A DNA stretch of 62,100 nt from positions 1 through 62,100 of the forward strand of contig CAYJNH010000001.1 in assembly GCA_964371705.1 (NCBI GenBank), in the 5' to 3' direction. The notes under the pieces are model-generated. The model made no database searches. It was not told where the DNA came from and saw only the letters and a program-made list of their open reading frames with translations. The stretch comes from an uncultured Muribaculaceae bacterium. GTDB taxonomy: Bacteria > Bacillota_I > Bacilli_A > RF39 > UBA660. This document shows positions 12,774 through 62,100 of the stretch, piece after piece. Numbering within the stretch: the first letter of the stretch is position 1; each line of letters opens with the position of its first letter. The position numbers and the translations under genes are program-made.

Positions 12774-12781
12774 GAGGTTTT

Positions 12782-14501: not shown

Positions 14502-14530
14502 TTGATATAAAATTAATAATAAGTTATAAT
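14502..14530 (+). promoter_or_regulatory. sigma-A-type promoter in front of the pilin genes
   Basis: TTGATA (14502-14507), 17 nt spacer, TATAAT (14525-14530). A strong RBS agaggagga follows. Confidence 0.55.
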
Positions 14531-14558
14531 AGTAATATAATAGAGGAGGAAATTTTTA

Positions 14559-14813: not shown

Positions 14814-14825
14814 GAAGAAGATAAT

Positions 14826-31397: not shown

Positions 31398-31474
31398 GGG
31401 GAATTAGCTCAGTTGGCTAGAGCACCTGCCTTGCACGCAGGGGGTCAAGGGTTCGAGTCCCTTATTCTCCACCA
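31398..31474 (+). tRNA. tRNA-Ala (anticodon UGC), CCA encoded
   Basis: Cloverleaf folded by hand: acceptor GGGGAAU/AUUCUCC with the G3:U70 identity pair, anticodon loop CUUGCAC, T-loop GGTTCGAGTCC, and a 3' CCA. Confidence 0.95.
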
Positions 31475-39991: not shown

Positions 39992-40975
39992 ATGGGAATA
40001 TTTGATAAAATAAAAAATTTTATAAGTAAAAAAGAAACAAAAGAAGAAAAAGAAGAATTAAAAGTATATGAAAAAGGATTAGAAAAAACCAGAGAAGAGT
40101 TTTCAAATAAATTAGTAAGTTTATCAAAAAGTCATAAAAAAGTAACTGAAGAATATTTTGAAGAACTTGAAAACATTTTGATAATGGCTGATATAGGGGT
40201 AAATACTGTCATGGATTTTTTAGATCAACTAAGGTCTAGAGTAAAAAAAGAAAAAATTTCTAACTCAGAAGATTTAAAAGAAATAATAGTAGATGAATTA
40301 TTTATAATATATGTTAATAATGAAAGTTTAACAGATAAAATGAATATACAAGAAAATGAACCAACTGTAATTTTAGTAGTAGGAGTTAATGGAGTTGGAA
40401 AAACAACTACAATAGCTAAACTTGCACATAAATATCAAAAAGAAAACAAAAAAGTTTTACTCATTGCTGGAGACACATTCAGAGCAGGTGCAACAGAGCA
40501 ACTTAAAGTATGGGCGCAAAGAACGAATAGTTTATTTTATGGAAAAGAAAATTCTGATCCAGCTAGTGTAGTGTTTGATGGTTTAAAATATGGTAAAAAG
40601 GAAAATGCAGATATTATTTTAATAGATACAGCTGGAAGACTTCAAAATAAAGTTAACTTAATGAAGGAATTAGAAAAGATAAATAAAATCATAGGTAGAG
40701 AAATAGCAAGTGCACCTCATGAAACTTTATTAATAGTAGATGCATCAACTGGTCAAAATGGTATTATGCAAGCAGAAAGTTTTAAAGAAATTACTAACGT
40801 TAGTGGCCTAGTCTTAACTAAATTAGATGGTACTGCAAAAGGTGGAATAGTTTTAGCGATTAAGGAAAAAGTGAATATACCAGTAAAATTTATTGGTTTT
40901 GGAGAAAAAATGGAAGATTTAAAAACATTTGATATAGAAAATTATATATATGGTTTATTTAAGGATATGATGTAA
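39992..40975 (+). CDS. ftsY: signal recognition particle receptor FtsY
   Basis: NG domain motifs GVNGVGKTTT, DTAGR and TKLDGTAKGG. Confidence 0.95.
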   Translation: MGIFDKIKNFISKKETKEEKEELKVYEKGLEKTREEFSNKLVSLSKSHKKVTEEYFEELENILIMADIGVNTVMDFLDQLRSRVKKEKISNSEDLKEIIVDELFIIYVNNESLTDKMNIQENEPTVILVVGVNGVGKTTTIAKLAHKYQKENKKVLLIAGDTFRAGATEQLKVWAQRTNSLFYGKENSDPASVVFDGLKYGKKENADIILIDTAGRLQNKVNLMKELEKINKIIGREIASAPHETLLIVDASTGQNGIMQAESFKEITNVSGLVLTKLDGTAKGGIVLAIKEKVNIPVKFIGFGEKMEDLKTFDIENYIYGLFKDMM

Positions 40976-40976
40976 T

Positions 40977-41267
40977 ATGGATAAACTAATATATTTTAAC
41001 AAACTTTTTGATATATATGGAGAATTATTTACTGACAATCAAAAAGAATTATTTAAACTGTACTATGAAGAAAATTTAAGTTTACAAGAAATAGCAGATT
41101 TAAAAAAAGTTTCAAGAGCATTCGTTTCCAAATCTATTAATCAAACTGAAGAAAAATTAGAAGAATATGAAGTAATCATAAAAAGTTTATTACAAAAAGA
41201 AAAAATAAATAATATAATGAAATTAAATGATATAAATTTAATAAAAGAAGAATTAAATAAGTTATAA
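40977..41267 (+). CDS. ylxM: YlxM/UPF0122 family putative DNA-binding protein
   Basis: About 100 aa sigma-70 region-4-like HTH (LSLQEIADLKKVSRAFVSKSI), directly after ftsY. Confidence 0.75.
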   Translation: MDKLIYFNKLFDIYGELFTDNQKELFKLYYEENLSLQEIADLKKVSRAFVSKSINQTEEKLEEYEVIIKSLLQKEKINNIMKLNDINLIKEELNKL

Positions 41268-47721: not shown

Positions 47722-47937
47722 ATAAATGCAAAGGAAAAAAGTAGTAATAAGTAATTTATTTTAAAGTGAGTTTATGGTTAGTGCGAATAAGCAAATAATC
47801 TTATGAATGAATTTTTCCAGCAGGCTATAAGCTCGCAGAAATGCGTTATATATGAAGATGATAGTATTTTGCTATAAGTAAGGTGGTACCGCGGGTTTAA
47901 TCTCGTCCTTACAAATTGCAGGATGCTTTTTATTTTG
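47722..47937 (+). promoter_or_regulatory. T-box leader (tRNA-sensing riboswitch) upstream of argS
   Basis: Conserved T-box sequence AAGGTGGTACCGCG (47880-47893). Stem I elements AGTAGTA (S-turn side), AGTGAG and GGTTAGTGCGA (distal loop). Short hairpin cgtcct/aggatg followed by a T-run. Confidence 0.85.
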
Positions 47938-47951
47938 AAGGGAGAAAATAT

Positions 47952-49628
47952 ATGTATATTGAAAAGCTAAAGGAAATAATCAACGAAGGTTTTAAATCAT
48001 GCGGGTATGATAATGAGTCAAATGTTACAGTTTCAAATAGGCCAGAACTTTGTGATTATCAGTGTAATGATTTGTTTAAAATAGCTAAAAGCTACGGGAA
48101 AAATCCAAAAGAAATAGGAGAAGAAGTAGTTGAAATTTTATCAGATAATAACGCATTTAAAAAAGTGGAGTTTTGCAGTCCAGGATTTATTAATATGACA
48201 TTATCAGATCAATTTATAAACAGTTACTTAAAAGAATATAATAAGGATTTAAAAAATTCTATAACTTCTCAAGTAAAAGAAAAAGTAGTAATAGATTATG
48301 GTGGACCAAATGTTGCAAAACCACTTCATGTAGGACATATGAGAACAACTAATATTGGAGAGTCAATAAAAAGAATTATTGAGTTTTATGGTCATGATGT
48401 TATTAGTGATGTTCATTTAGGAGATATTGGACTTCAAATAGGTCAAGTTATATATAAAGTAATTGAAGATAATTTAAATATAAATGACATAAATATTGCC
48501 TATTTAGATAAAACATATCCATTAATGAGTAAAGCCTGTAAAGAAGATGATGAATTAAAAGAAAAGTGTGCCTTAATTACAAAAGAACTTCAAGATGGTA
48601 ATGCACAGTATCAAATGATATGGAAAAAAATATGTGAAATATCAGTTGAAGATATGAAAAAAAGTTATAAAAAATTAGGTACACATTTTGATTATTGGTA
48701 CGGAGAATCTGATTCATTTAAATATTTGAATGAAACTACAAAAATAATGGATAAAGTACTTGAAAAAAGTAACGGAGCATTAATTGTAGATATAAAAAAG
48801 GAAACAGATAAAAACGAATTGCCTCCGCTTATATATAAGAAAAGTAATGGCGCTTATTTGTATGGTTCAACAGATTTAGCTACTATATATCAAAGAAAAA
48901 CAGAATTTAATGCTGAAAGAATAATATATGTAACAGATTTAAGACAAAATTTACATTTTACACAAGTATTTAGAGCAAGTGATAAAGCAGGATTATTTCC
49001 TGAAAATAAACTTGAACATATTGGATATGGTACAGCTAATGGAATCGATAATAAGCCATATAAAACTAGAGGGGGAGAAACTCCTAAATTAGAAAGTTTA
49101 CTAGAAGATGCTAAATCAATATTCGTATCAAAAAGAGAAGATAATAAAAATTTAAGTGAAGAAAATTTAAATAAAATAACAACTTCTATATTAAAATTTG
49201 CTGATCTTAGTACAACTTATGAAAAAGATTATATATTTGATTTAAATAAATTTTCAGAAGTAAATGGAAAAACGGGACCATATCTTCTATATACTTATCT
49301 AAGAATTAATAAAATAATCAATTCTAGTGAAATAAAACAAGAATTATCTAATCAAATATATAATGAAAGTGATAGAAATTTAAGATTAAAAATATTAGAA
49401 TTAGGAAGATTATTAGATTTAGCTTATGAAGAAAGAAAACCAAATTACATTTGTGATTATGTATACAATTTAGCTTCTAATGCAAATATATTTTATGGTA
49501 TAAATCATATAAATAATGAAGAAAATCAAATAATTAAAAACGATTTGACATATGTACTAAATTTAACAAACAAAATTATTGAAAATCTTTTATATTTGCT
49601 AGGTATAGAAATACCATCTGAAATGTAA
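47952..49628 (+). CDS. argS: arginine--tRNA ligase
   Basis: DYGGPNVAKPLHVGHMRTT (HIGH region) and HLGDIGLQIG resemble E. coli-type ArgRS. ATG at 47952 follows GAAGGGAG; the track start at 47916 lies inside the leader terminator. Confidence 0.9.
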   Translation: MYIEKLKEIINEGFKSCGYDNESNVTVSNRPELCDYQCNDLFKIAKSYGKNPKEIGEEVVEILSDNNAFKKVEFCSPGFINMTLSDQFINSYLKEYNKDLKNSITSQVKEKVVIDYGGPNVAKPLHVGHMRTTNIGESIKRIIEFYGHDVISDVHLGDIGLQIGQVIYKVIEDNLNINDINIAYLDKTYPLMSKACKEDDELKEKCALITKELQDGNAQYQMIWKKICEISVEDMKKSYKKLGTHFDYWYGESDSFKYLNETTKIMDKVLEKSNGALIVDIKKETDKNELPPLIYKKSNGAYLYGSTDLATIYQRKTEFNAERIIYVTDLRQNLHFTQVFRASDKAGLFPENKLEHIGYGTANGIDNKPYKTRGGETPKLESLLEDAKSIFVSKREDNKNLSEENLNKITTSILKFADLSTTYEKDYIFDLNKFSEVNGKTGPYLLYTYLRINKIINSSEIKQELSNQIYNESDRNLRLKILELGRLLDLAYEERKPNYICDYVYNLASNANIFYGINHINNEENQIIKNDLTYVLNLTNKIIENLLYLLGIEIPSEM

Positions 49629-49660: not shown

Positions 49661-49735
49661 TTGTCATAAATTTGAAAAAAATAATTGATAAAAAAAATAA
49701 AGTATGTTATTATTTTATAGTAGGTGAGGTATAAA

Positions 49736-50347
49736 ATGGGTGTAATAAAAAAAATAATAATAGGTGTGTTAATAACAGTGTTTTTTGCAATAGCCATAAC
49801 TATGTCAATATTGCTATTAAATACAAACAAAGAATTTGGAGTAACTCAGTTTGAAAATTCTTCTTTATTGATAATAGATGGAGAGATATCATCTCCTAAA
49901 TATGAAAAAGGTGATTTAGTAATAACTGAAAAAAAACCTTTAGATAGTATAAATGTTGGAGATGAAGTTTTTATATTTAAAATCAATGACAATGATAAAA
50001 TAAGTATAGAATTAGGTTTTGTAGGAGAAGTATTTGTTGATGAAGATGCAATATCTTTAGAAAATGGAGCAACTTATTCTTCAAAATTTATAGCAGGAAC
50101 AGCAACAGATGTATATAGTGGGCTAGGAACAATAGTGAGTTTATTACAATCTACATGGATATTCTTTTTCTTAATAGTAGTACCATGTTTCTTGATTTTT
50201 ATATACCAAATATATTCATTAATAGTAGAAATTAAATTTGGCGGAGATGAACCATATACAAAATCTGAAAGAAAAGAAAAGTCAGAAAAAAAAGAAAGTA
50301 GACCTAAAAAAAGCAAAACGACAACAACAAGAAGTAGTAGATATTAA
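49736..50347 (+). CDS. SipW-like pseudo-peptidase (S26B fold and topology, catalytic Ser/His absent)
   Basis: It has an N-terminal TM helix, a beta-rich domain, a C-terminal TM helix and a basic tail. GEISSPKYEKGDLVITEKK...VGDEVFIF aligns with GSMEPKYEVGDVLISIEK...KGDAISY of the SipW at 55533. GSMEP, the TH(R/E) His and KGD.N are all missing. Confidence 0.6.
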   Translation: MGVIKKIIIGVLITVFFAIAITMSILLLNTNKEFGVTQFENSSLLIIDGEISSPKYEKGDLVITEKKPLDSINVGDEVFIFKINDNDKISIELGFVGEVFVDEDAISLENGATYSSKFIAGTATDVYSGLGTIVSLLQSTWIFFFLIVVPCFLIFIYQIYSLIVEIKFGGDEPYTKSERKEKSEKKESRPKKSKTTTTRSSRY

Positions 50348-50459
50348 TCTCTTCTTTTTTTTTACATATACATAAAAAATACTAAAAAAACTTATTGTAA
50401 AAAAATGTCTTATATGATAAAATTAAATAGAATAATAGTTTAGAATAGGAAGGTAGTTT

Positions 50460-52853
50460 ATGAGGTCTAGTGGTAGTACTAATAAAGTGTTAAAAAAAGC
50501 TACTAACATAACATTAGATATATTAATTTTTATATTTGGGATTATATTGCTAGTTTCCTTATATAACGTAGTACAAGTTAAAATACTGGGAAATGACTAT
50601 TCCAGTTTTTTTGGTTATACAATATTTGAAGTCCAAACTGGAAGTATGGAACCGGAAATTAGTGCAGGAGACTGGATAATAGTAAAAGAAAAAAAGAGTT
50701 TTGCTCTTGATGATGTAATAACGTTCCAACAAGATGGTAATTTTATAACTCATAGAATAATAGAAAAGTACAGTGACACCTTTATTACAAAAGGAGACGC
50801 TAACAACTCAGAAGATGATCCAATTAACGCTGATCAAATCGTGGGAGAAGTCGTTAGTGTAATACCGCTATTTGGATTATTTAGGATGACACTGTTTAAT
50901 CCATATATATTAATAGCACTTATAATAACAATATACATATATAATATGAAATCAATAAAAAAAGGAGGTATAATAAAGGTGATAAATAAAGTAAAAGAAT
51001 TTTTCGCAAAATTTGCAAAAGGTAAAGAAAAAAAAGAAACAGAAGACTTTTTCAAAGAAGATAACAAGAAATCATTTGAAAATATACCTTCACAACCAAG
51101 GTTTAGAGACTATGAAGAAAGATTAGAAGATCATACTAAACACAACGTAGACGAAGAAGAGGAAATCAAAGAAGAAAAAATAATAGATGAAGATAAAGAA
51201 GAAGAATTAAGTAAAACAATGTTCTTCAGAATGGTATCAGTTGATGAAGATGAAAATGAAAACAAGGTTGTTGAAGATTTTGAAAATGACCAACAACCTA
51301 TAATAACAGGAGATGAACCATTAGATACATTTGAAACTAAAGAAGAACTTAATGTTTTTGAAACTGAAGATAAAGAAGAAGCAAATGTATTCGAAAGTGA
51401 AATAGACGATGATTTTGAAAAAACAGTAAATCAATATGAAGAGCCAAAAAGGGAAACAGATTCATTTATTATCAGCACTGATGATGGAGATTATGAGTAT
51501 GAAAAACCAGAAGAAGAAATAGATGAAGAAATAGAAGTTGAAGAAACAAAAAATGAAATTGAAGTTGAAGAAGAAGTTGAAGAAACAAAAGAAGACAAAG
51601 AAGATGAAGCAAAATTTACTTTAGAAATGATTTTCAATAAACCAGAATATAAAAGAAGCAAGAACATCATAGCTAGAACAATGGCTATTAAAGAAGAAGA
51701 AATAAATAAAACAATAGATTTTATATTTGGTGAAAGTAAAATGCTTGCAAATGAAGCTACGATAAAAAAATCTTTAATCAAATCATATATAGAATCTAAA
51801 TATTACAATATTTTTAGTGAAAAAGTAGCATTACTAGAAACTAAAAAAACAGCTCAAAAGAAACCGAAATATGCAAATTTAAGCAGTATAAGTTTAATTA
51901 GTGAAAAAAATGGATTTGATAGAGCATACGCTACAAGAGTAAAAAAAGTAATAAACAGAGTGTCATATGCTCTTGAAGAAGATAGTGCTAAACTAGCAAG
52001 TATGTATTCAGGTAATGATAAAACTTACGAAGAAAAACTAGTAAAATATTCAAGTTTAATATTGCTTATTTCTAAATTAGAATACTTAGTTGATTTAGAT
52101 ATAAACATGAGAAGTAAAAAGATATTATATACAAAAGAAATTATTAAATTTATAAGTGATTATAATATAGAAAACGATAATATAGAGTACACTGTTAAGG
52201 AAATCATACATTCTCAAAAGCATTTTAGAAGTGCTTCAAAATATTTCTTGGATAGACTTAATACTGAAATGTTTGAATTAATATACCATCCGTTTAAAAC
52301 GGATAAAGCTAAATTTTTATTAGATTTAAAACATAATATAAGTTTCTCGCAAGTTTATAGTGATAGAGTAGTAGATAAAGCATATCAAGAAGGAATAGTT
52401 GCAGAAGATAAATTAAATGTATTATTAACTCTTCTTCAAGCAAGATTGTCACACGATATGCTAACTAGTGAGTTTGTTAATGAATATGTAGTATTGCTTC
52501 CAGATTCATTATGTTTAAAAGATACAAAATTTGAAAGATTATTTAAACAAAATAATGAAGAATACGCTAAGAAAAATATAGTATATTTAATAAGTTATGA
52601 TATTTTTATGAAAAAAGCTGCTAGCATTAAAAATCTAAGGAAAAATGGATTTAGAATAGCAATGTATATTAATGATGATACAAAGTTTGCTAGTAAAAAT
52701 AAAACAGGAATAGCATTAGCAGAATACATATTCATAGATAAACAAACAAAAAAAATAATAGAGTTAGAAAAATTGGTTTTTGACAATTTTAAAAACAAAA
52801 TAATAAAAGACGATATTGATAATAAATTAGAAATTAAGAAGGAGGAAAGATAA
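50460..52853 (+). CDS. SipW-type (archaeal/ER-type, S26B) signal peptidase I fused to a cytoplasmic extension of about 620 aa
   Basis: Residues 1 to about 165 carry a TM helix, QTGSMEPEISAGDWIIV, ITHRII, TKGDANNSEDDP and a second TM helix. An acidic low-complexity linker follows (IEVEETKNEIEVEEEVEETKEDKEDE), then an uncharacterised domain of about 400 aa. Confidence 0.8.
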   Translation: MRSSGSTNKVLKKATNITLDILIFIFGIILLVSLYNVVQVKILGNDYSSFFGYTIFEVQTGSMEPEISAGDWIIVKEKKSFALDDVITFQQDGNFITHRIIEKYSDTFITKGDANNSEDDPINADQIVGEVVSVIPLFGLFRMTLFNPYILIALIITIYIYNMKSIKKGGIIKVINKVKEFFAKFAKGKEKKETEDFFKEDNKKSFENIPSQPRFRDYEERLEDHTKHNVDEEEEIKEEKIIDEDKEEELSKTMFFRMVSVDEDENENKVVEDFENDQQPIITGDEPLDTFETKEELNVFETEDKEEANVFESEIDDDFEKTVNQYEEPKRETDSFIISTDDGDYEYEKPEEEIDEEIEVEETKNEIEVEEEVEETKEDKEDEAKFTLEMIFNKPEYKRSKNIIARTMAIKEEEINKTIDFIFGESKMLANEATIKKSLIKSYIESKYYNIFSEKVALLETKKTAQKKPKYANLSSISLISEKNGFDRAYATRVKKVINRVSYALEEDSAKLASMYSGNDKTYEEKLVKYSSLILLISKLEYLVDLDINMRSKKILYTKEIIKFISDYNIENDNIEYTVKEIIHSQKHFRSASKYFLDRLNTEMFELIYHPFKTDKAKFLLDLKHNISFSQVYSDRVVDKAYQEGIVAEDKLNVLLTLLQARLSHDMLTSEFVNEYVVLLPDSLCLKDTKFERLFKQNNEEYAKKNIVYLISYDIFMKKAASIKNLRKNGFRIAMYINDDTKFASKNKTGIALAEYIFIDKQTKKIIELEKLVFDNFKNKIIKDDIDNKLEIKKEER

Positions 52854-54364
52854 TGGATACAGTTTTAAGATTTTTATACGAATTTTTTGATAATTTTGTG
52901 TCAGGACTACAATCTATTTGGGAAGGTATAGTAGGGATATTTAATTTTGGAAATTATGTCAAAATAATTAATAATTATAGCAAAGAGTTCGAAGGACCGG
53001 AATGGCTATTCATTTTAATAGCTGTAGCATTAATCCTAATTATTCTTGGTTTAATAGGATTTGTAATATTTATTTATGTAAAAAGATTTATAAGAAATAA
53101 AACACACAAAGTAAGTAATGAATCTCTTTTAGAAGAGGTAGATAAACTAAATAATCAAGTTAGAAAACTAATGAAAGAAAATGCTGAATTGATGGCAATG
53201 AAAGTATCTCAATTAGGATTAAATCCGGATGATGAAGATGGTGTCAACCCAGAAGAAGAAGTAGATGAAGAAACTAAAGAAAATGCACATAGGTTCCCTA
53301 AACTTGAACTTATAGATGAAGAGTTTAAGGATTATACAGTTCAAAATTATAATAACAATTTTACATTAGAAGAATTAACAGATAATTTAAGAGCATTTTC
53401 TGCAAGTACATTAAAGCTTTATTATGATTATTCTTTATTAAGAACATTTATTGCTGGTTTAGCATCAAGTAGATTGATAATACTACAAGGTATATCAGGA
53501 ACAGGAAAAACATCATTAGCATACGCTTGGGGTAAATTTGTAGCAAATGATTCAGTAGTAGCATCTGTTCAACCTTCATGGAAAGATAAAACAGAATTTT
53601 TAGGTTACTTCAATGAATTTACTAAAAAATTCACAGAAACGGAAGCGTTAGGAGAAATTTATGCAGCTAGTTTTGATGATAATGTACATACGATAATACT
53701 AGATGAAATGAATATAGCAAGAGTAGAGTATTACTTTGCAGAAATGTTATCAGTTCTTGAAATACCAGCAAGAAGCGAGTGGGTAATAGAATTAGTAACA
53801 AGTGGGTGGCCACATGATGCAGCAAAACTTGACAATGGTAAATTGTTATTACCAGGTAACTTATGGTATATAGGAACAATCAATAACGATGATTCTACAT
53901 ACATGGTAACAGATAAAGTTTATGATAGAGCAGTTCCAATAGATATAAATAAAAAAATCAAACCATTTGATTCTCGTAAACAAGATGCAGTTCCAATAAA
54001 TGCAACATATTTAGAAGGATTATTTGCTGAAGCAATAGAAAAAAATCCTGTTTCTAAAGATGGATTAGATAAATTAGCTTTGATTGATGATTATGTTATT
54101 AAACATTTTAGAATAGCTTTTGGTAATCGTATTATGAAACAATTGACAACATTTGCTCCAGTATATGTAGCATGTGGTGGTCAAGAAATTGAAGCGATTG
54201 ATTACTTTATTGCAAGAAAAATATTAAGAAAATTTGAACAATTAAATATTGCGTTTATACGTGATGAGTTAGATCCATTTATCTCATTTTTAAATAAAGA
54301 ATGTGGTAAAGGAGTTATGAAAGAGTGTATTGAGTTTATAGAGTATATTAAAAAATCAATATAG
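52853..54364 (+). CDS. membrane-anchored McrB-family AAA+ NTPase
   Basis: One TM helix (WLFILIAVALILIILGLIGFVIFIYV, with a KRFIRNK-positive cytoplasmic side) is followed by a coiled coil. McrB-type motifs then appear in order: LQGISGTGKTS, IILDEMNIARVEYYFAEMLSVLE, NLWYIGTINNDDSTY and DKVYDRAVPIDI. The start overlaps the upstream stop by 1 nt. Confidence 0.75.
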   Translation: MDTVLRFLYEFFDNFVSGLQSIWEGIVGIFNFGNYVKIINNYSKEFEGPEWLFILIAVALILIILGLIGFVIFIYVKRFIRNKTHKVSNESLLEEVDKLNNQVRKLMKENAELMAMKVSQLGLNPDDEDGVNPEEEVDEETKENAHRFPKLELIDEEFKDYTVQNYNNNFTLEELTDNLRAFSASTLKLYYDYSLLRTFIAGLASSRLIILQGISGTGKTSLAYAWGKFVANDSVVASVQPSWKDKTEFLGYFNEFTKKFTETEALGEIYAASFDDNVHTIILDEMNIARVEYYFAEMLSVLEIPARSEWVIELVTSGWPHDAAKLDNGKLLLPGNLWYIGTINNDDSTYMVTDKVYDRAVPIDINKKIKPFDSRKQDAVPINATYLEGLFAEAIEKNPVSKDGLDKLALIDDYVIKHFRIAFGNRIMKQLTTFAPVYVACGGQEIEAIDYFIARKILRKFEQLNIAFIRDELDPFISFLNKECGKGVMKECIEFIEYIKKSI

Positions 54365-54385
54365 ATTAAGAAGGGAAAAAAGAGT

Positions 54386-55525
54386 ATGGCAGACTTATTA
54401 AACAAGGATATAAATAGCGAAACTAAAAAGAAAAACAAAGCATTTTTCGATAAAATAACATCAGATATGAGTTATAAAGCAAAAATGAATGGCGATGCTA
54501 TAAATTTTGATTGGATAGATATTGTTGAACAGTCTTGTCCATATCTAGATAATGTTGTAAGAAATCCTAAATTGATACTAGTAAATGAAGCTGAAGTTGA
54601 GTTAATAGAAAAAGCGAAAAAAATTACAGTAGAAAGTATTAAAGATTTAGCAGTGCACAACTATTATATAGATGATGTAACAAAAAATGGAGATGTAAGG
54701 CCTTCTAAAATACTAAATATCAAAAGTGAAGAGACATACAATATTTATGAAAATAGATTTTTATATACAGTAATTTATTTTCTAAATAGATTTCTTCAAA
54801 AAAAAGAAAAAGAGTTGGATGAACTATTAATTGATAGAACTCGTAAGTTAGAATACATTGGTACAACTAGAGTTGCTAATGAAGAAGTAAAAATGCAAGT
54901 TCTACTTAAAGCAACAGACGTATCAAAGCCTGATTTAAACAAAGATTTATTAGATGAAATCGCTAGTATTAGAAAAAGAATGAACAGGGTTAAAGATTAT
55001 ATTTCTTCTTGGTACAGAAGTGAGTTATTTAAACAATTAGAAAAAGCTAGAGTTAAATTAGTTAATCCCCCAATTAAAAAAACAAATATTATACTAAAAA
55101 ACCCAAATTTCAAAATGGCAGTTGAATTATGGAATTTTTTATACAATTATGTGGAAAACGAAGGAAGCAAAAGAAAAGGATTGGATTCTGATGGATCAGA
55201 ATTATTAATGGGACTTTTAGATCATGCCTTTTTAGTAGATTTTTATGTTCTTGAAAGTGTATGTAAAACAAAAAAAGAACAAAAAGAAAAATTAAATCAC
55301 TACGCATTATCTTTAATAAATGATGAAATCAGAAGATTATTAGATTTACTTAAAAAGTGTGGTTTTAAAATAACAGATGATGAAATTCTTGAATTAATTG
55401 CAAACAATTTAGGTAATGATAATCATAATATGGAAGATAAATCAAAAATAGCAAATCAAGATATTAAAAATAAATTTAAAAGTGCGATGGATGATTACTT
55501 AGAAAGGGTACAAGAATACTTGTAA
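54386..55525 (+). CDS. McrC-N-terminal-like partner protein without a recognisable PD-(D/E)xK nuclease motif
   Basis: SEETYNIYENRFLYTVIYFL resembles the NEDT.ANRIIK segment of McrC and DUF2357-type proteins. It sits directly downstream of the McrB-like gene. The remainder is helical and charged, and I could find no D...(D/E)xK signature. Confidence 0.45.
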   Translation: MADLLNKDINSETKKKNKAFFDKITSDMSYKAKMNGDAINFDWIDIVEQSCPYLDNVVRNPKLILVNEAEVELIEKAKKITVESIKDLAVHNYYIDDVTKNGDVRPSKILNIKSEETYNIYENRFLYTVIYFLNRFLQKKEKELDELLIDRTRKLEYIGTTRVANEEVKMQVLLKATDVSKPDLNKDLLDEIASIRKRMNRVKDYISSWYRSELFKQLEKARVKLVNPPIKKTNIILKNPNFKMAVELWNFLYNYVENEGSKRKGLDSDGSELLMGLLDHAFLVDFYVLESVCKTKKEQKEKLNHYALSLINDEIRRLLDLLKKCGFKITDDEILELIANNLGNDNHNMEDKSKIANQDIKNKFKSAMDDYLERVQEYL

Positions 55526-55532
55526 AAGCAAT

Positions 55533-56105
55533 ATGGAAAGAAAAAAAGAAAACAAAATATTCTCAATTATAAAATTAATATTCAAAATTATAATAATATT
55601 ATTTGTTGTTTCATTTATTTTAATGGTAGTGCTTCAAAGGGTAAGTAAAAATGAATTTTCTTTCCTTAATATAAGATTATTTAGTGTACTAACAGGTAGT
55701 ATGGAACCTAAATACGAAGTAGGAGATGTCTTAATAAGCATAGAAAAAGAACCAGAAGATATAAAAAAAGGTGATGCGATAAGTTATCTAGGAAAAGAAG
55801 GTACTTTTGATGGCAAAGTTGTAACACACGAAGTAATAGATATAGAAACAGGGGAAGATGGCAAGTTATTATTTACAACTAAAGGTATAGCAAATACCGC
55901 AATAGATCCGATAGTTTCAGAAGATCAAGTATACGGAGTTGTTTTATTTGAAGCTGTTCCTTTAAGTTTCATATATGGAATAATCAGTAAACCACTGGGA
56001 ATGTATTTACTAATTATAGTACCTATTTTATTCATAATTGGGTATGAAATTGTAAGTAGAATGTTAGAAAAAGAAGAAAAAAGAAGAAGTAATTATAGAG
56101 ATTAA
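55533..56105 (+). CDS. sipW: signal peptidase I, SipW type (S26B)
   Basis: N-terminal TM helix, LTGSMEPKYEVGDVLI, VTHEVIDI, TKGIANTAIDP and a C-terminal TM helix. 190 aa. Confidence 0.85.
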   Translation: MERKKENKIFSIIKLIFKIIIILFVVSFILMVVLQRVSKNEFSFLNIRLFSVLTGSMEPKYEVGDVLISIEKEPEDIKKGDAISYLGKEGTFDGKVVTHEVIDIETGEDGKLLFTTKGIANTAIDPIVSEDQVYGVVLFEAVPLSFIYGIISKPLGMYLLIIVPILFIIGYEIVSRMLEKEEKRRSNYRD

Positions 56106-56119
56106 ATGGAGGGATACAA

Positions 56120-57346
56120 ATGAAAATAATGTCAATAAGCAAATTAAAAGTAATGGTATTAATATTTGCAGTTCTTGCATTTGTGTCCGTTACATATGCA
56201 TGGTTTACTTATACTACTGAAGTTGGAACAAAATTAAATGTTGATGTTATGGCTTGGAATGTAGAATTTACAGATGAATCAACATCAGTAACAAATAGTA
56301 TAGTAATAACATCTGCAGAAATTTTTCCTGGCATGGATACAATAACAGAGTATATAGAAATAAATAACTATGGAGATGCTGATGCAAAACTAACTACTTT
56401 TGTTGAGTCAGCAAGAATATTTGATCAAGATTTATATTTAGTTGATCCAGTTAGAACAAGTGAACAATTAGAAGATGCTCTAGCACATGATTATCCATTT
56501 CATATTGATATTGTATTAAGTGATAATTATTTGAAACATCAAACAGGAAAAAGTGTTTTTGAAGTATCGATTTCATGGCCTCTTGATACAGATAATGATA
56601 AAGAAGATAGTAAATGGGGTTTAGATGCATACAATTTTGCAGTAAGTGAAAACGATAAACTTTTATTAGATTCATCATATGAAATTAGAAATCCTATAGA
56701 GGTTGTAATATCTGTAACTGCAGAGCAACAGATTGAAACTTCAGATATAGCCTCTGATAAAGATTATAGATTAGGTGATACAATTTTATTTGATGTAATA
56801 ACAAATAAATCTTGTACTACAATAAGTTCAAGTTGTTTAAAAACTAATGTAATAGATATAGATAATAAATATTCAGATTCAACAGTAACGCTACTTCCTG
56901 ATATAAAATCGACTTATGCTACTAGTACTTTTACAGGGTATAATGCAATTTTAGCTAATACAGTGGCCACTTGGTCAGTAAATACAAGAGCACTAGAAAC
57001 AGATGATTTACTTAATATAATTTCAAAAGATATAGTAACAAGTTATATTGAAAGAGAAAATTTTTCAGATATAATTATTGGATCAACGAATTATGAAAAT
57101 AGAGCAGATAAAAAAATAAATAGTACAATAGCTTATGGAGGTAATTTTACATTTTTAAATGATAAATTTAATTTCTTATATACAGCTAACTGTGTTTGGT
57201 CAAATACACAGTATGGTGTAGATAGTTCATTTGCATTAAAAGATATAGATGCAACAAGAAGTCAATTATATTCGTTAAGCAACACAGAATACTGTAAAGT
57301 AGTTCCAGTAATAATAGCAGACAAAACAGCATTAAGCACTATATAA
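56120..57346 (+). CDS. TasA/camelysin-like secreted protein with SipW-cognate signal peptide (408 aa)
   Basis: The signal ends in ...FVSVTYAWFTYTTEV (compare TasA ...GTWAAFND). EYIEINNYGDADA is an N.G strand motif. Last gene of the plus-strand operon. Confidence 0.6.
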   Translation: MKIMSISKLKVMVLIFAVLAFVSVTYAWFTYTTEVGTKLNVDVMAWNVEFTDESTSVTNSIVITSAEIFPGMDTITEYIEINNYGDADAKLTTFVESARIFDQDLYLVDPVRTSEQLEDALAHDYPFHIDIVLSDNYLKHQTGKSVFEVSISWPLDTDNDKEDSKWGLDAYNFAVSENDKLLLDSSYEIRNPIEVVISVTAEQQIETSDIASDKDYRLGDTILFDVITNKSCTTISSSCLKTNVIDIDNKYSDSTVTLLPDIKSTYATSTFTGYNAILANTVATWSVNTRALETDDLLNIISKDIVTSYIERENFSDIIIGSTNYENRADKKINSTIAYGGNFTFLNDKFNFLYTANCVWSNTQYGVDSSFALKDIDATRSQLYSLSNTEYCKVVPVIIADKTALSTI

Positions 57347-57386
57347 TGTCTGTTTTTTTTTTTTTTTTGCAATAAAAAACAAGTAA

Positions 57387-58010
57387 TTAAATTACCTGTT
57401 CAAATTTTAAATTAGCATTTATAGTAATAACTAAATCTTCTAGTGAAGCTTGATGTCCAACAGTAGTATCTACTTCATCAGTCATAGTGTTAGTATCTCC
57501 ATCATACCATTCAAAGTAAACTCTAATAACAAATTTTTCATGCTTATAATTTTCTATACCCTTATTAAATATCATTGTGTTTTCTATTACTCCACCAGTT
57601 ATAGAAACTCCATTAAGTGGATTACTAGTAGAAGCTCCGTTTTCAAGAATTTCGTATTTATTTATTATAAAATCTGGTACTTCAGTGCTTACAGCAGATA
57701 ATTCAATGTTATACCTAAATGATAAATCAACATTAGTTGGGTCAACTTCTATATCAAAGTATCCAGTTGATGTAGGAGCAAGTTTGTTGCTACTTACATT
57801 ATTATTAGTTTCAATAGTAGGAGTAAATTCAATAGTAGAAGTAGAATTTTGAACTATATCCGTTTCATTAACTAGTATTTGCCATCTAGATAATGATACA
57901 TCTACATTACCAGTTGTATCAGCAACATACCGAGAATATGTACTACTTATCATGCTAAGAGTAATTACCATCGATACAAACAAAAATAATAATCTAACTC
58001 GTTTTTTCAT
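57387..58010 (-). CDS. TasA/camelysin-like secreted protein, short form (207 aa)
   Basis: The signal ends in ...MISSTYSRYVADTTGN. All-beta composition. Shared late motif IRVYFEWYDGDTN. Confidence 0.55.
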   Translation of the reverse strand: MKKRVRLLFLFVSMVITLSMISSTYSRYVADTTGNVDVSLSRWQILVNETDIVQNSTSTIEFTPTIETNNNVSSNKLAPTSTGYFDIEVDPTNVDLSFRYNIELSAVSTEVPDFIINKYEILENGASTSNPLNGVSITGGVIENTMIFNKGIENYKHEKFVIRVYFEWYDGDTNTMTDEVDTTVGHQASLEDLVITINANLKFEQVI

Positions 58011-58060
58011 ATTAACTCCTTTTTACATTTTAATTATATATATATAATGTACATATATCA

Positions 58061-58096
58061 ATATAAAAAACGTAAATACTATATAAAAAACGTAAA
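58061..58096. repeat. two copies of a 16-bp direct repeat, ATATAAAAAACGTAAA, spaced 20 bp start to start
   Basis: Copies at 58061-58076 and 58081-58096, in the divergent intergenic region. Confidence 0.7.
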
Positions 58097-58114
58097 ATTT
58101 TACACAAAAACAAT

Positions 58115-58143
58115 TTGACATGTTGCTATTATTAAGCTAATAT
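58115..58143 (+). promoter_or_regulatory. sigma-A consensus-like promoter P1 for the 58296 operon
   Basis: TTGACA, 17 nt spacer, TAATAT. Confidence 0.5.
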
Positions 58144-58184
58144 TACGCTTTACATTTTTATTCGACAAAAAGCAACAATATATA

Positions 58185-58213
58185 TTGACTATCAATACAT
58201 AATTTTATATAAT
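58185..58213 (+). promoter_or_regulatory. sigma-A consensus-like promoter P2 for the 58296 operon
   Basis: TTGACT, 17 nt spacer, TATAAT. Confidence 0.55.
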
Positions 58214-58295
58214 AAAGTTGTATTATAGATAAGATGTCAATACAAGTTAGAGAGTAAATATATATCTCTTGTTGATATCAAGGAGATTGATGGAT

Positions 58296-58994
58296 ATGGA
58301 AGAAAGTAAATTTACAATCGATGCGAAAAAAATAAGAAGGGATAAGCAGTTACTAAAAATAGCAAAGCTAGCTATAGTAATAATTATTCTTGCCATTATA
58401 TTTTCGTACTTAGTAATTGGTTTTGTTTATAATAGTGGTAATTTTACCATAACGCTCGATAAGAATTCGTTTTATGAGAAAGGTTTAATCATATATGATG
58501 ATCCTAATTATAAAACATACAGATCAGAGTTGATTGCAGAGTCGATTGATACTTTCGATAATGTAGCAGAGTTATGGTTACCTGCTGACTTAGATTCGCA
58601 TGGGGGCGGTTCTAATAATGGAGATAACTATATATCTTATACATTCTATATCGAAAATACAGGAGAAGCTGCAACTGATTACTATTCTGAAATACTTATT
58701 GATGATGTTATAAAAAATGTTGACGAGGCTGTAAGAATTAAAGTTTACAAGAATGGTGAGTCAATCACTTATGCGAAAGAATCTGCTTCCGGAGATCCTG
58801 AAGAAGGAACAGTGCCTTTTGATTCTGATAAACGAGTAGTATTTGATGAAAACAAGGATTTCAAACCAGGTGATATTACAAAATATACTATTGTAATATG
58901 GCTTGAAGGTTCAGATCCTGAAACAACTAATAATATTATTGGTGGTGAAATTAAATTACACATGGAATTCAATTCAGAAATAGTCGAAAAATAG
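58296..58994 (+). CDS. membrane-anchored short member of the same TasA-like family
   Basis: The TM helix LAIVIIILAIIFSYLVIGFVY lacks the TYAWF cleavage motif. YISYTFYIENTGEAA and ITKYTIVIWLEGSDPE...IKLHMEF match motifs of the 441 and 436 aa proteins. ATG at 58296 (or 58290) follows AAGGAG; the track start at 58269 is unlikely. Confidence 0.55.
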   Translation: MEESKFTIDAKKIRRDKQLLKIAKLAIVIIILAIIFSYLVIGFVYNSGNFTITLDKNSFYEKGLIIYDDPNYKTYRSELIAESIDTFDNVAELWLPADLDSHGGGSNNGDNYISYTFYIENTGEAATDYYSEILIDDVIKNVDEAVRIKVYKNGESITYAKESASGDPEEGTVPFDSDKRVVFDENKDFKPGDITKYTIVIWLEGSDPETTNNIIGGEIKLHMEFNSEIVEK

Positions 58995-59011
58995 GAGGAA
59001 AGAGAGAAGTT

Positions 59012-60337
59012 ATGCAAAAAAGAAACGCAAAACAAAAAAGAAACGTAAGAAATTTAGCTGCAGTAACAACGTTAACTGCGATTATCTTGATAGTTTCAAC
59101 TTATGCATGGTTTATTGGTCTTGACGAAGTAAGAGTAGAAGATTTTACTGTTAAAATCGCTGCTGTTGATAGTTTAGAACTATCACTTAACGGAGCTGAT
59201 TGGTCAGATACAATAAATATTGATCCAGATACAATTGAAGATGTAACTGGAACAAGTGCATATGTAGGAAACACAAATTCATGGACTGGTAGACTTGATA
59301 CTGACACTGACGGAGATGGTGTAAATGATCCAGTTGGATTAATACCAGTGTCATCAGTAGGTCAAATGGACACTGCTTCTTCAAGATTAGTAATGTATGA
59401 AAAAGCTAGTTTAAGTCCAACACCACCATATGGAACAAGATTAATGGCAAGTCAAGTACAAAATCATGTAGATGCTGATACTGGTACTGCTGGTCACCAA
59501 CCAGTAGATGAAGTAGATGGATATATTGCTTTTGACTTATTTGTTAAAAATTATACTGGAGCACAATATATAGAAGCTTTAAATCAAGCTGATGAAGAAG
59601 CTATTTACTTAATAGACGAATCAAATGTAGCCGTTACATTAACAGGAGATAACGGTGGAACAACTGATGCTGCAGAAGATGCAATTAGAGAAGCTTCAGG
59701 AATCGAAAATTCTGTTCGTGTAGCATTTGCTCAAGTAGGACGTGTTAAAGGTACTGAAACTGATGCTGCAACTATTACAGGAATTTCTTGTACAAGTGAA
59801 GCTGGTGTAGTTACTGGTATTTGTAGAACTGCAAGTATTTGGGAACCAAATGATACTGCTCACGTAGACGGTGCAATTAATTACTATAATAATAACTGTG
59901 GTTATAGAGGAACTGCAACTGCTCCAACTGGTGCTGGGTTTACAGCTAAAGGTTGTGTAGCAATAGCTGATGGAACTGCTGCTCCAACATATGCAGTAGC
60001 AACAGATATTTCATCTGACATGGATGTTAACATTTATGATGGTGGATATAACGGTTTAGCTGTACCAGAAGTACCAGCTACAATGCCTGATGGAACAACT
60101 GCTTATCCAAATGCTGGAGATGCAACTTTAGAAGCTTTTGATACATTTACAGATAGTGAAAAAATATTAAATGCTGATGAAAGACCATCAATTATGACTT
60201 TAGCACCAAACAGTATTACAAAAATAAGAGTATATATTTACTTAGAAGGTCAAGACGTAGATAACTATGACTGGGCTATCGAAGGAAAACAAATAACTGT
60301 TGACTTTGGATTCAGTAAACAAATATATGAAGCATAA
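59012..60337 (+). CDS. major TasA-like secreted protein 1 (441 aa) with SipW-cognate signal
   Basis: The signal ends in ...IILIVSTYAWFIGLDEV. Motifs include GYIAFDLFVKNYTGAQYIE, ENSVRVAFAQVGRV and ITKIRVYIYLEGQDVDNYD...ITVDFGFSKQ. Codon usage is visibly shifted to GCT/GGT/ACT/GTA/CGT. Confidence 0.7.
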   Translation: MQKRNAKQKRNVRNLAAVTTLTAIILIVSTYAWFIGLDEVRVEDFTVKIAAVDSLELSLNGADWSDTINIDPDTIEDVTGTSAYVGNTNSWTGRLDTDTDGDGVNDPVGLIPVSSVGQMDTASSRLVMYEKASLSPTPPYGTRLMASQVQNHVDADTGTAGHQPVDEVDGYIAFDLFVKNYTGAQYIEALNQADEEAIYLIDESNVAVTLTGDNGGTTDAAEDAIREASGIENSVRVAFAQVGRVKGTETDAATITGISCTSEAGVVTGICRTASIWEPNDTAHVDGAINYYNNNCGYRGTATAPTGAGFTAKGCVAIADGTAAPTYAVATDISSDMDVNIYDGGYNGLAVPEVPATMPDGTTAYPNAGDATLEAFDTFTDSEKILNADERPSIMTLAPNSITKIRVYIYLEGQDVDNYDWAIEGKQITVDFGFSKQIYEA

Positions 60338-60359
60338 TAGAAAGATATAGGAGGAAAAT

Positions 60360-61670
60360 ATGCGTAATAAAAGTAAAAAAACGAAAAAAGTCCAAAATAT
60401 CTTGATATTTGCTGGGTTTAGTGCAATTATCTTAATTGTATCTACTTATGCATGGTTTATTGGGTTACAAGAAGTAACAGTAAGCGAATTTCAAGTGGAA
60501 ATCGCTTCAACTGATAACCTACTAATATCATTAAATGGACTTGAATGGGGAGAAACTGTTACTTTAAATGAAGGAACATGGACTGCTTATGATGATGCAG
60601 CAGCTACTCCAAGCCAAGTGTATGATGGTCATACAAATAGCTGGGGTGGAAATGGATTAAAACCAATATCAACAGTAGGAACTGTTGATGCAACTTCTTC
60701 TACAATGGAACTTTTTGAAAGAGGAAGTTATACTCACACAGGTGGTGGATTTAGACTTGTTGCTGATAGATTAGCAAACAATGTAGAAGAAACTGCTGAC
60801 AGTGGAATTTATAATGAAGTTGATGGATATGTTGCATTCGATTTATTCATTAAAAACTTTACTGGAGCTCAATATATTGAAGAATATAACCCAGCTGATG
60901 AAGAAGATATTTATTTACTTACTGATTCAGGTGTAGCAGTTGCTGAGGCTGGTACTACTAATGCTGATGGAGATGATTTAGGATATATTGGTGCAGCTAG
61001 TCACGGTATTGAAAATTCAGTTCGTATAGCATTTGCACAAATAGGGCGTGTTAACGGAACAAGTGAAGATGGAAGCTTAATTGGTGGTATTTCATGTACT
61101 ACTGGTGGAGGAGTTACTTCAATTTGTAACGACGCTGTTATTTATGAACCAAACGAAAGAAAACATGAAACTAATGCAATAACTTGGTTTAATACATACT
61201 GTGATAACAGATCTGCTGATGCAGCTGGAGCTTCAGTATATACTAACGACCAATGTAATGTTTCTACTCCAGATACAGGAGCAGACGGAGACTTTACTGA
61301 TGGAAACGTTGAACCAGGATATACTACATTTGCTAATGATCTAGAATTAGATACTTGGGCAGTAAGTGCTCCAATTAATTCTGCAGCTAGATTTGATATC
61401 TATGATGGGCACAATACATTTGATCCAGTTGCTGCTGGTACAAGCGTAGAAAATGTAGAAACATTTACTGATGCTGAAAAAATGATAGCAGGTAATGATA
61501 GACCAGCATTCATGACTTTAGCACCAAATAGTATAACAAAAATAAGAGTATACGTTTACTTAGAAGGTAACGATTTAGATAATATGGATCTTGCTACTGA
61601 AGGAAAACAAATACTTGTTAACTTTGGATTTACAAAACAAAAATTTACAGAAGCTGACTTTACACCATAA
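60360..61670 (+). CDS. major TasA-like secreted protein 2 (436 aa), paralog of 59012..60337
   Basis: Same signal (IILIVSTYAWFIGLQEV) and conserved blocks. Strong RBS taggagga. Confidence 0.7.
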   Translation: MRNKSKKTKKVQNILIFAGFSAIILIVSTYAWFIGLQEVTVSEFQVEIASTDNLLISLNGLEWGETVTLNEGTWTAYDDAAATPSQVYDGHTNSWGGNGLKPISTVGTVDATSSTMELFERGSYTHTGGGFRLVADRLANNVEETADSGIYNEVDGYVAFDLFIKNFTGAQYIEEYNPADEEDIYLLTDSGVAVAEAGTTNADGDDLGYIGAASHGIENSVRIAFAQIGRVNGTSEDGSLIGGISCTTGGGVTSICNDAVIYEPNERKHETNAITWFNTYCDNRSADAAGASVYTNDQCNVSTPDTGADGDFTDGNVEPGYTTFANDLELDTWAVSAPINSAARFDIYDGHNTFDPVAAGTSVENVETFTDAEKMIAGNDRPAFMTLAPNSITKIRVYVYLEGNDLDNMDLATEGKQILVNFGFTKQKFTEADFTP

Positions 61671-61722
61671 TCTAATCATTATTGATGTAATAATATTCGT
61701 AAATAAAATAAATTAGGATATA

Positions 61723-61748
61723 AAGGGGTAACCTAATGGTTACTCCTT
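61723..61748 (+). terminator. strong hairpin after the second major subunit gene (attenuator, partial terminator or mRNA stabiliser)
   Basis: aaggggtaacc / ggttactcctt is an 11-bp stem with one G.U pair and a TAAT loop. There is no clean T-run afterwards. Confidence 0.4.
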
Positions 61749-61771
61749 AATCTTAGTTATAGAGGGAAAAA

Positions 61772-62100
61772 ATGGCTAGTAATAAAAATAAAAAAAATAA
61801 AAAGCAATTAGACATAAAAAGGAGAAAGATTAATTTTAATATATTATTAATTTTTGCTTTTTGTGTCGGATTAATATTAATAGTTGTAACATATGCATGG
61901 TTTTCATCATCATTAGATGCAACAGTTGATTTTGTTAGATTAACAGTAAATAGGGAAACAGGTTTGTATGCATCTCTTGATGGAGTAAACTATGGTAGTG
62001 AACTAATTATTAATGAAGAAAATATTATTAATGGAATAATAGATGAGTACGAAACTCATAATAATAAATGGGCTTCAGGAGGTTTAATTCCTACTTCATC
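61772..62100 (+). CDS. further TasA-like family member, 5' part (runs off the window)
   Basis: Not in the ORF track because it has no stop. ATG follows agagggaaaaa. A basic N-terminus precedes ...LILIVVTYAWFSSSLDATVDF. HNNKWASGGLIPTS parallels HTNSWGGNGLKPIS of the paralog. Confidence 0.6.
   Translation, partial: MASNKNKKNKKQLDIKRRKINFNILLIFAFCVGLILIVVTYAWFSSSLDATVDFVRLTVNRETGLYASLDGVNYGSELIINEENIINGIIDEYETHNNKWASGGLIPTS

Follow-up and report, generated by a model that had tools for sequence, protein, structure and literature searches.

The gene cluster at positions 49724–62100 of a 62,100-nucleotide (nt) stretch of DNA from an uncultured Muribaculaceae bacterium (assembly GCA_964371705.1, contig CAYJNH010000001.1; GTDB lineage Bacilli_A, RF39, UBA660) is a member of CoCoPALM, a class of gene clusters that has been named but is uncharacterised, and it is one vertically inherited chromosomal cluster. 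The whole stretch is hereafter called the window, and the genes of the cluster are labelled A to K in their order along it. They encode three homologues of the signal peptidase SipW (A, B, and E), a membrane-anchored GTPase of the McrB family (C), its McrC-N-like partner (D), and a set of exported or membrane-anchored proteins (F to K). As far as the genes alone can tell, the cluster probably encodes, with confidence only a little above even, a GTP-coupled, signal-peptidase-based machine for the assembly of surface fibres. The open reading frames, with the coordinates, strands, and order given in a first-pass annotation that a model had made from the letters of the sequence, were all found again.

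Bell et al. (2024) gave such an architecture the name CoCoPALM in a single paragraph, with a supplementary figure but no experiments, described the anchor of its GTPase as FtsB-like, and deferred CoCoPALM to a forthcoming paper (PMC11090510). A literature search found no later CoCoPALM paper, and the supplements of the CoCoNuT paper that were searched contained no CoCoPALM detail. The first-pass annotation had not recognised the arrangement as a described system, which was incorrect insofar as the architecture already bore this name, if only in that one paragraph. Like CoCoPALM, the window combines an N-x-D McrB-like GTPase, anchored by a transmembrane (TM) segment and a coiled coil, with an adjacent DUF2357 homologue and flanking genes of the signal peptidase family, three of which lie in the window. 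The coiled coil of the window is short (about five heptads), and so is the McrC-N protein, with 379 amino acids (aa) against 500–1057 aa in distant relatives. The published paragraph is without exported substrates, a pseudo-peptidase, or fusion data. What is added here to a hitherto only-named class is a dead SipW, a SipW-domain fusion together with its split forms, a division of the exported proteins into a core set (F, G, and H) and a variable set (I, J, and K), and a predicted cleavage motif.

The case for a functional unit begins with gene order. The GTPase is found in more than 8000 clusters at the 90% identity level (> 60% identity, full length) and in 712 clusters at the 50% level (E ≤ 1e-30). 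Its carriers are metagenome-assembled genomes labelled Bacilli, Tenericutes, Mollicutes, Clostridium sp. CAG:628, CAG:567, and Candidatus Coprovivens, and the complete carrier contigs measure 1.2–1.5 Mb. Far beyond chance, this order of genes is repeated in the genomes of 80 species and in 80 distant loci from metagenomes. Among 81 close loci, of which only those flanked by 4.5 kb or more were counted, D and E are located 3′ of the GTPase gene in 63 of 63 and F in 62 of 63, while G is encoded downstream on the other strand in 55 of 63; on the 5′ side, B is present in 54 and A in 53 of 58 loci. The genes H, I, and J were found in 29–36 close loci, with variable position and copy number. When metagenomes were scanned with aligned full-length representatives from distant lineages (35–47% identity to the window GTPase), 38 distant loci with enough flank were obtained (GTPase identity 34–47%), in which a DUF2357 gene is directly downstream of the GTPase gene without exception (38/38), at least one SipW-like gene is present in 37, and genes resembling F, G, H, I, or camelysin are likewise present in 37. 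The exported partner most strongly kept in these distant loci is H, with hidden Markov model E-values down to 1e-60 or lower. In the distant metagenome loci (L087–L166), the DUF2357 protein has the larger size given above and the SipW genes are reduced to the peptidase alone; in one of them (L155), a single DUF2357 gene is flanked by two GTPase genes.

The partners also diverge together with the GTPase across loci, with Spearman rho values of 0.67–0.84 for A, D, E, F, and G and of 0.36–0.60 for B, H, and I. The first-pass annotation had linked the NTPase pair C and D in function to the peptidases and the proteins that they would process, and this link is borne out by the conserved synteny, the co-divergence, and the fusion and fission of SipW described below. 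It had also named, as an outcome that would count against it, a sporadic insertion of the pair in this genome only. The gene-neighbourhood comparison instead found the GTPase in at least 476 GTDB species genomes, with D and E beside it in all 63 close loci. Chance adjacency, in which a remnant of McrBC came to sit by accident within a sipW operon that has nothing to do with it, might be argued from the classic tapA-sipW-tasA operons, which have no NTPase, but it is refuted by the recurrence of the arrangement in those 80 species genomes and 80 distant loci and by the fusion of SipW to a GTPase-adjacent domain, and it is almost certainly wrong.

The fused gene B (50460–52853, + strand) encodes 797 aa, of which residues 1–165 (about 50460–50954) are a SipW peptidase of the active type. 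After the second TM segment, an acidic linker of variable length (about 50955–51611) leads into a conserved cytoplasmic C-terminal domain of about 410 aa (about 51612–52850). Against TIGR02228, the model for signal peptidase I of the archaeal/endoplasmic reticulum (ER) type (SipW; cut-off 51.85 bits), B scores 74.4 bits (9e-21) and E, a stand-alone SipW of the active type (190 aa; 55533–56105, +), scores 89.5 bits (2e-25). The family profile of B additionally matches eukaryotic SEC11 catalytic subunits in PDB at 3e-7. In alignments of 25 orthologues per protein for A, B, and E, those of B and E retained the serine of GSM(E)P, the histidine of TH(R/E), and the G(D)AN..D box, with B itself reading GSM, THR, and GDAN, so that a SipW fused to a large cytoplasmic domain and a canonical SipW are both present as first annotated. 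Searches of Pfam, NCBIfam, PADLOC, and PDB with the C-terminal domain of B returned no match, and the domain does not resemble D. In four other loci (L141, L150, L158, and L159), this domain is encoded separately as a protein of 319–342 aa directly upstream of the GTPase gene, and the peptidase stands alone. The existence of the cytoplasmic domain of the fused SipW as a gene of its own beside the GTPase in other lineages is new here. Such fusion and fission are the strongest available evidence that the peptidase, outside the cytoplasm, and a partner of the GTPase inside it act as one complex.

The gene A (49724–50347, +; 207 aa) encodes a dead SipW paralogue with N- and C-terminal TM segments and a K/E/S-rich tail; its true start is possibly the ATG at 49736. 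The protein is a faint relative of SipW, scoring far under the TIGR02228 cut-off (17 bits, E = 0.004) and sharing 28% identity with E. The serine of GSM, the histidine of TH(R/E), and the G(D)AN..D box are missing in 25 of 25 orthologues. Because the catalytic motifs are missing in every aligned orthologue, A is a true pseudo-peptidase and not a sequencing accident, in agreement with the first-pass description of the protein as catalytically dead. The three homologues A, B, and E each have one N-terminal and one C-terminal hydrophobic segment, which is the SipW topology and is predicted to place the active site outside the cell. A signal peptidase homologue without catalytic residues is also found in SipA/LepA of Streptococcus pyogenes pili, where it is required for pilus polymerisation. 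SipA/LepA chains (PDB 4N31 and 4K8W) are weak matches of the SipW profile. SipA differs from A in that it is of the bacterial P-type and works with sortases, whereas the dead paralogue in the window is of the ER/archaeal type and the cluster has no sortase.

The gene C (52853–54364, +) encodes a GTPase of 503 aa that consists of a tail, a TM helix, a zipper, an acidic linker, and the GTPase domain. The N-terminal tail (about 50 aa) is conserved, net-acidic, and predicted to be extracellular. One strong TM segment falls within residues 45–81, taken here as about 52–78, and is followed by a leucine-zipper-like segment of about five heptads (about 92–116, with a 4-3-4-3 run). The positive-inside rule suggests an N-out/C-in topology, as the TM segment is followed by the K/R-rich stretch KRFIRNKTHK on its C-terminal side. 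Walker A (GISGTGKT), Walker B (ILDEMN), and the signature motif (GTINNDDST) are invariant in 32 homologues. In PDB, the family profile matches only McrB of Escherichia coli (E = 2.7e-5), over a region that takes in both Walker motifs and the signature, and NCBIfam McrB is matched at E = 3.6e-4; this profile check agrees with the first-pass assignment of a McrB-family protein anchored by one TM segment. Within the signature, N344-N-D346 is invariant, and the next residue is D, E, or Q in distant homologues (NNDD, NHDE, and NSDQ). Because the Asp at N+2 is invariant across distant homologues, C appears to carry the N-x-D variant of the signature; the call depends on this Asp, since an ungapped alignment with NTAD of E. 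coli would make NNDD an N-x-x-D motif. The catalytic or ligand-binding parts of the three SipW homologues are predicted to lie outside the cell, and the GTPase in the cytoplasm, tethered by one TM helix and a short zipper.

The anchor of C has the architecture of the FtsB-like anchor of CoCoPALM, a TM segment plus heptads, and it matches FtsL, FtsL_2, and DivIC, in every case below threshold, in 5–8 of 34 orthologues. These matches, together with the term chosen by Bell et al., are consistent with a regulator linked to the envelope or to division, in which an FtsB/FtsL-like anchored GTPase signals across the membrane (as FtsEX does) and switches the SipW peptidases on or off, while the exported proteins form or remodel an envelope layer or are shed upon regulated cleavage. 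The similarity to FtsB/FtsL lies below the family threshold, however, and may reflect only the combination of a TM segment with a coiled coil. The exported proteins, discussed below, bear on this regulator from both sides, and it is judged unlikely.

The partner D (54386–55525, +; 379 aa) has no TM segment and matches DUF2357 (PF09823) with 32.5 bits (6.5e-8; gathering score 23.3), as do 32 of 32 orthologues. No nuclease or McrC family of Pfam was matched by any of the 32 orthologues, no D...(D/E)xK motif is conserved at a plausible spacing in the family alignment (A5), and the family profile found no McrC chain or other sequence match in PDB. The first-pass description of an McrC-N-like partner without a visible nuclease thus stands, although D may have the fold of an inactivated nuclease. 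McrBC is the textbook example of a GTP-dependent restriction motor. The window shares with the McrBC system of E. coli (PDB 6HZ4 and 6UT6) the AAA+ GTPase core, including both Walker motifs and the Asn/Asp signature, as well as a DUF2357 partner that is expected to plug the hexamer, but it has a TM helix and zipper in place of the DNA-binding N-domain, N-x-D in place of N-x-x-D, and no detectable PD-(D/E)xK nuclease. No DNA-binding family was matched in C, whose N-terminus is taken up by the tail, TM helix, and zipper. Given that it lacks a DNA-binding domain and that no nuclease could be detected, the cluster appears not to be a DNA restriction system of the McrBC kind. The CoCoNuT systems (CnuB/CnuC) form a sister clade of N-x-D GTPases, with 35–47% identity in the GTPase domain and McrC homologues that often are without a nuclease; they differ in being soluble, with very long coiled coils and HEPN or other nucleases, and are often borne by mobile elements.

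This ancestry raises the alternative of a system that descends from McrBC, is tethered to the membrane, and acts against phages or by abortive infection, in which the GTPase and McrC-N sense nucleic acid or infection and the peptidases and exported proteins are effectors or mere neighbours. The profile PDC-M26A of a PADLOC candidate system, which has 724 positions, matches residues 92–304 of C at 1e-34 over part of its length, and the nearest GTPase-domain relatives outside the family are long plasmid-borne pairs of CoCoNuT-like AAA and DUF2357 genes with 25–39% identity; both observations are in favour of defence, as is the McrBC ancestry itself. Yet PADLOC found no other PDC-M26 component in the block, the second component included, and no DNA-binding N-domain, nuclease, HEPN domain, or other effector was found. 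Among 72,556 plasmids and 50,697 phage records there is no full-length relative of the GTPase. The matches there are to GTPase-domain relatives only, at the identities just given, and the one that was inspected, on a Deinococcus plasmid, is a long AAA and DUF2357 pair of the CoCoNuT type. Two phage records (MT835511.1, positions 40037–41104, and MT837127.1; “Bacteriophage sp.” from human faeces, unannotated) contain GTPase-domain relatives with 31% identity and 34–58% coverage.

The rate of divergence also bears on defence. In the closest relative (L084/L085, GCA_964368535.1), the GTPase is 89% identical to that of the window and D is 90.5% identical, compared with 76% for the neighbouring arginyl-tRNA synthetase (ArgRS) and 68–73% for A, B, E, and F; I and H are at 93% and 87%, respectively. 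The GTPase and McrC-N thus diverge more slowly than ArgRS, and such slow divergence is opposite to the typical turnover of defence genes. Moreover, the genomic context is fixed and co-diverging throughout the loci, with the cluster positioned between housekeeping genes. A defence module nested in a fibre operon, which the first-pass annotation had put forward as one of two possibilities, does not fit a pair that is never missing, never occurs in the absence of peptidases, is not found full-length on plasmids or phages, and is more conserved than ArgRS. Such a nested insertion was rejected on the basis of synteny and of the divergence of the GTPase and McrC-N, and a defence function of any kind is improbable.

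The exported proteins would be the substrates of the fibre-assembly machine. F (56120–57346, +; 408 aa) is a core member of the cluster and has a signal ending in ...VSVTYA↓WF (the arrow marks the predicted cleavage site) and four conserved cysteines. G (57387–58010, − strand, convergent with F; 207 aa) is an exported beta-sandwich protein with the signal ...SSTYS↓RY. H (58269–58994, +; 241 aa) has a basic N-terminal tail and a TM signal-anchor and lacks the TYAWF motif; its TTG start is uncertain, and an in-frame ATG occurs at 58290. I (59012–60337, +; 441 aa; ...VSTYA↓WFIG) belongs to a variable multi-copy family, J (60360–61670, +) is its paralogue with 43% identity, and K (...VVTYA↓WF) is the 5′ part of an I-like gene that starts at 61772, not 61773, and is cut by the window end (61772–62100, +). 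At least six paralogous proteins with TYAWF or TYSRY signals had been annotated at first. The motif T-Y-[A/S]-x-[F/Y] after an N-terminal hydrophobic helix was indeed found in five of these (F, G, I, J, and K), but not in H. Only I, J, and K can be regarded as clear paralogues, and by BLAST the paralogy held within F to K only for I and J. The K-type proteins are distant relatives of I (23–26%), and F, G, and H are tied to the others only by weak profile matches; the N-termini of F and I are related at 3.9e-5, and the C-termini of H and of the I family share a block (E = 1.6e-4). The best-conserved residues of the families include the predicted cleavage site, S-x-T-Y-S↓R-Y-V in the G family and T-x-A↓W-F-x-G in the I family. 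A class III signal (that of type IV pilins) was considered and rejected, as the motif is located C-terminal, not N-terminal, to the hydrophobic segment.

No Pfam or NCBIfam family, SipW-substrate models included, was matched by F to J, nor was a Pfam family matched by ten distant members of the H family. An AlphaFold2 model of G, built on the family alignment, is a jelly-roll beta-sandwich with a helical signal (pLDDT, the predicted local distance difference test, 70.8; residues 23–42 of low confidence), and the corresponding model of I is a confident beta-rich fold (pLDDT 78.4, predicted template modelling score 0.81; residues 31–38 of low confidence). In both, the low-confidence segment falls at or just past the predicted cleavage site, and the beta-rich body comes next. 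Searches of PDB sequences with the G and I family profiles returned just spurious matches to designed repeats, and a Foldseek search of PDB and BFVD with the I model found no match (best E 0.02, template modelling score about 0.1). There are 2639 homologues of I, many with an inserted immunoglobulin (Ig)-like domain (PF16403), and such inserts would suit a surface-exposed, variable subunit. Four conserved cysteines occur in each of the F and I families, which suggests that this anaerobe may form disulfides outside the cell. Thr, Ala, Gly, and Asp are abundant in the I, J, and K proteins, and within 58000–62100 the G+C content rises to 0.33 over their genes, compared with about 0.26 elsewhere (about 26% for the window).

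The TasA/camelysin-type label that 56120–61670 had received at first was overstated, since the direct profile and fold tests were negative or inconclusive and the link is only transitive. No window protein matches Peptidase_M73 (PF12389). With a TasA query whose sequence was checked to be identical to 8AUR, hhalign gave E = 0.013 for G, in the signal region only, and no significant result for F, H, or I. The G model found TasA (8AUR and 5OF2) in PDB among many weak jelly-rolls (Foldseek E about 0.01, template modelling score 0.33–0.34). The connection runs through family A7, a protein of about 184 aa that 45 related loci encode but that neither the window nor its closest relative contains. Ten of 37 A7 members match Peptidase_M73 (best 1e-5), one of them with 22.6 bits against a cut-off of 22.5, and A7 matches TasA at E = 1.2e-4, including an L.L..L.PGD...F.F.N block. 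It also matches G (E = 4.4e-8, N-terminal 46 aa), F (hhalign E = 7.7e-7, probability 92%, N-terminal 90 aa of F), and H (E = 6e-5), and a tblastn search with L001_183 as the query covered the full length of G at 23% identity (E = 6e-4). The proteins F to K may thus be viewed, with loose justification, as a superfamily network that touches the camelysin/TasA family, the TasA link of the window proteins being only transitive, via A7; for any single window protein, the name “TasA-like” is weak and not demonstrated.

The exported set also returns the argument to the envelope- or division-linked regulator. Such a role is in keeping with H, which is membrane-anchored, does not look cleavable, and is the most widely retained partner, with the conservation of the GTPase above that of ArgRS, and with the fold of I, which is not TasA-like. 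The proteins I, J, and K, however, are multi-copy, fast-diverging, and Ig-decorated and resemble adhesin or fibre subunits more than division factors, and members of the camelysin family occur in related loci.

Fibre assembly draws its closest parallels from the operons tapA-sipW-tasA of Bacillus subtilis, sipW-calY/tasA of Bacillus cereus, and sipW-bsaABC of Clostridium perfringens, in which SipW is likewise encoded beside exported beta-sandwich proteins with a signal of the G/S-T-x-A-x-F type; loci related to the window also include a TasA/camelysin (PF12389) member. Each of those operons has a single active SipW and lacks both a pseudo-SipW and an NTPase, whereas the window proteins fall short of PF12389 and the fold of I and J is unmatched. 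The export of BsaA in C. perfringens depends partly on type IV pilus proteins (PMC11580942) and may serve as a precedent for the energised export of a TasA-like polymer. In concept, the cluster also resembles type IV pili, Tad pili, and type II secretion, in which subunits are held in the membrane and a peptidase of their own is combined with a hexameric NTPase in the cytoplasm. The proteins are unrelated, however. Those systems rely on PilB-type ATPases, and their class III signal is cut on the cytoplasmic side, while the predicted cut in the window proteins is outside the cell and C-terminal to the hydrophobic segment.

In the fibre-assembly machine that is the favoured reading, the proteins F to K would be subunits of a cell-surface fibre or matrix, with F, G, and H as the conserved core or base and I, J, and K as a variable, Ig-decorated shaft or adhesin. 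Sec would insert the subunits, and their signal helices would keep them in the membrane, where A, in analogy to SipA/LepA, may serve as a holder or chaperone that does not cleave. The active peptidases B and/or E would then cut them outside the cell after T-Y-A/S, and the cut may free a conserved N-terminal strand for polymerisation of the donor-strand type, as in TasA. Polymerisation of TasA through its freed N-terminal strand is established (PMC9674648). On the cytoplasmic side, the GTPase hexamer, with McrC-N in its pore, could dock on the cytoplasmic domain of B, and GTP hydrolysis could gate or power subunit release, polymerisation, or extrusion through the wall. A bolder form of this machine can be put forward more tentatively, with less than even confidence, as a GTP-powered Gram-positive route in which a hexameric motor derived from McrBC is mechanically coupled across the membrane to the SipW peptidases, by way of the peptidase-fused domain and the pseudo-peptidase, and drives subunit release and polymerisation.

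Several points weigh against fibre assembly driven by GTP. The GTPase step is inferred from linkage and gene fusion alone, because TasA-type fibres elsewhere need no NTPase. The lack of a Peptidase_M73 match among the window proteins, the noise-level fold match between G and TasA, and an I model with neither a TasA-like nor another PDB match count against it as well. In addition, the very high conservation of the GTPase also fits a housekeeping role in the envelope, and a Tad-like ATPase locus elsewhere in the window (below) is another appendage system in the organism.

The constraint on the McrBC core is greater than that on an aminoacyl-tRNA synthetase, and in hundreds of species the core is tied to signal peptidases. 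Should it drive or gate the assembly of a surface polymer, this would be a new use for an AAA+ defence motor and a new principle of pilus or matrix assembly in Gram-positive bacteria. It would also be the first job of the McrBC module outside defence and nucleic acids, and a core trait of a large uncultured clade of gut Bacilli. Furthermore, it would give a handle on how these abundant, uncultured gut Bacilli with small genomes attach to hosts or partners.

The genes from 50460 to 57346 are as tightly packed as first annotated. B and C overlap by 1 nt at 52853, and the gaps of 21 nt (C–D), 7 nt (D–E, before 55533), and 14 nt (E–F) span 7–21 nt; A and B are separated by 112 nt. On the + strand of this interval, the sole terminator-like call (50585–50606) falls within the coding sequence of B, and another terminator-like hairpin lies 3′ of J (61723–61748, +). 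Between G and H (58033–58213), divergent promoter-like sites for G (58061–58033, −) and for H (58185–58213, +) have 11 of 12 consensus positions each, and these are consensus matches only. In L084/L085, the cluster ends about 3 kb past the equivalent of the window end, after the 347-aa counterpart of K and two further genes, of 50 aa and 551 aa, and is followed by IscS and NifU. The related loci L001 (1592–6762), L002 (249–7315), and about 40 more contain extra conserved genes that are absent from the window, namely a protein of 756–1232 aa with sub-threshold OmpL47-type matches, a 184-aa camelysin-like protein, a protein of 295–300 aa with the signal ...SYAKYVSD, and a pair of 50 aa and 550 aa. 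A link to sporulation, considered on account of SleB-like/amidase neighbours in L001 and L002, was rejected, as these neighbours are not kept in the window or in L084.

The gene immediately preceding the cluster is argS (47916–49628), with a T-box leader directly 5′ of it (47722–47913), and this adjacency is retained in the close relatives L004, L005, and L084. The window is an ordinary Bacillota chromosome and not a mobile island, because it carries RNase P RNA, the T-box and argS, a class A penicillin-binding protein, RNase Y, and RNase J. The RNase P RNA is of class B (27487–27826; 278 bits), and a single tRNA-Ala(UGC) is located at 31398–31474. The second appendage-like locus (2310–14475, +) begins with a three-gene cassette that is tandemly duplicated, with products of 235, 985, and 137 aa in the first copy (2310–6405, +) and of 243, 1088, and 137 aa in the second (6525–10868, +). 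Neither of the Cys-rich proteins (985 aa and 1088 aa) matches a Pfam family. The 137-aa product is the same in both copies, and the underlying DNA repeat (5931–6230 and 10394–10693) has 98% identity. Downstream, an ATPase of the T2SSE family (11670–12773, +; PF00437, 2e-28) is followed by two polytopic membrane proteins. A direct repeat of 167 nt, in two copies 267 nt apart with 94% identity, lies at 14559–14992 under a low-complexity open reading frame (14524–14949, −).

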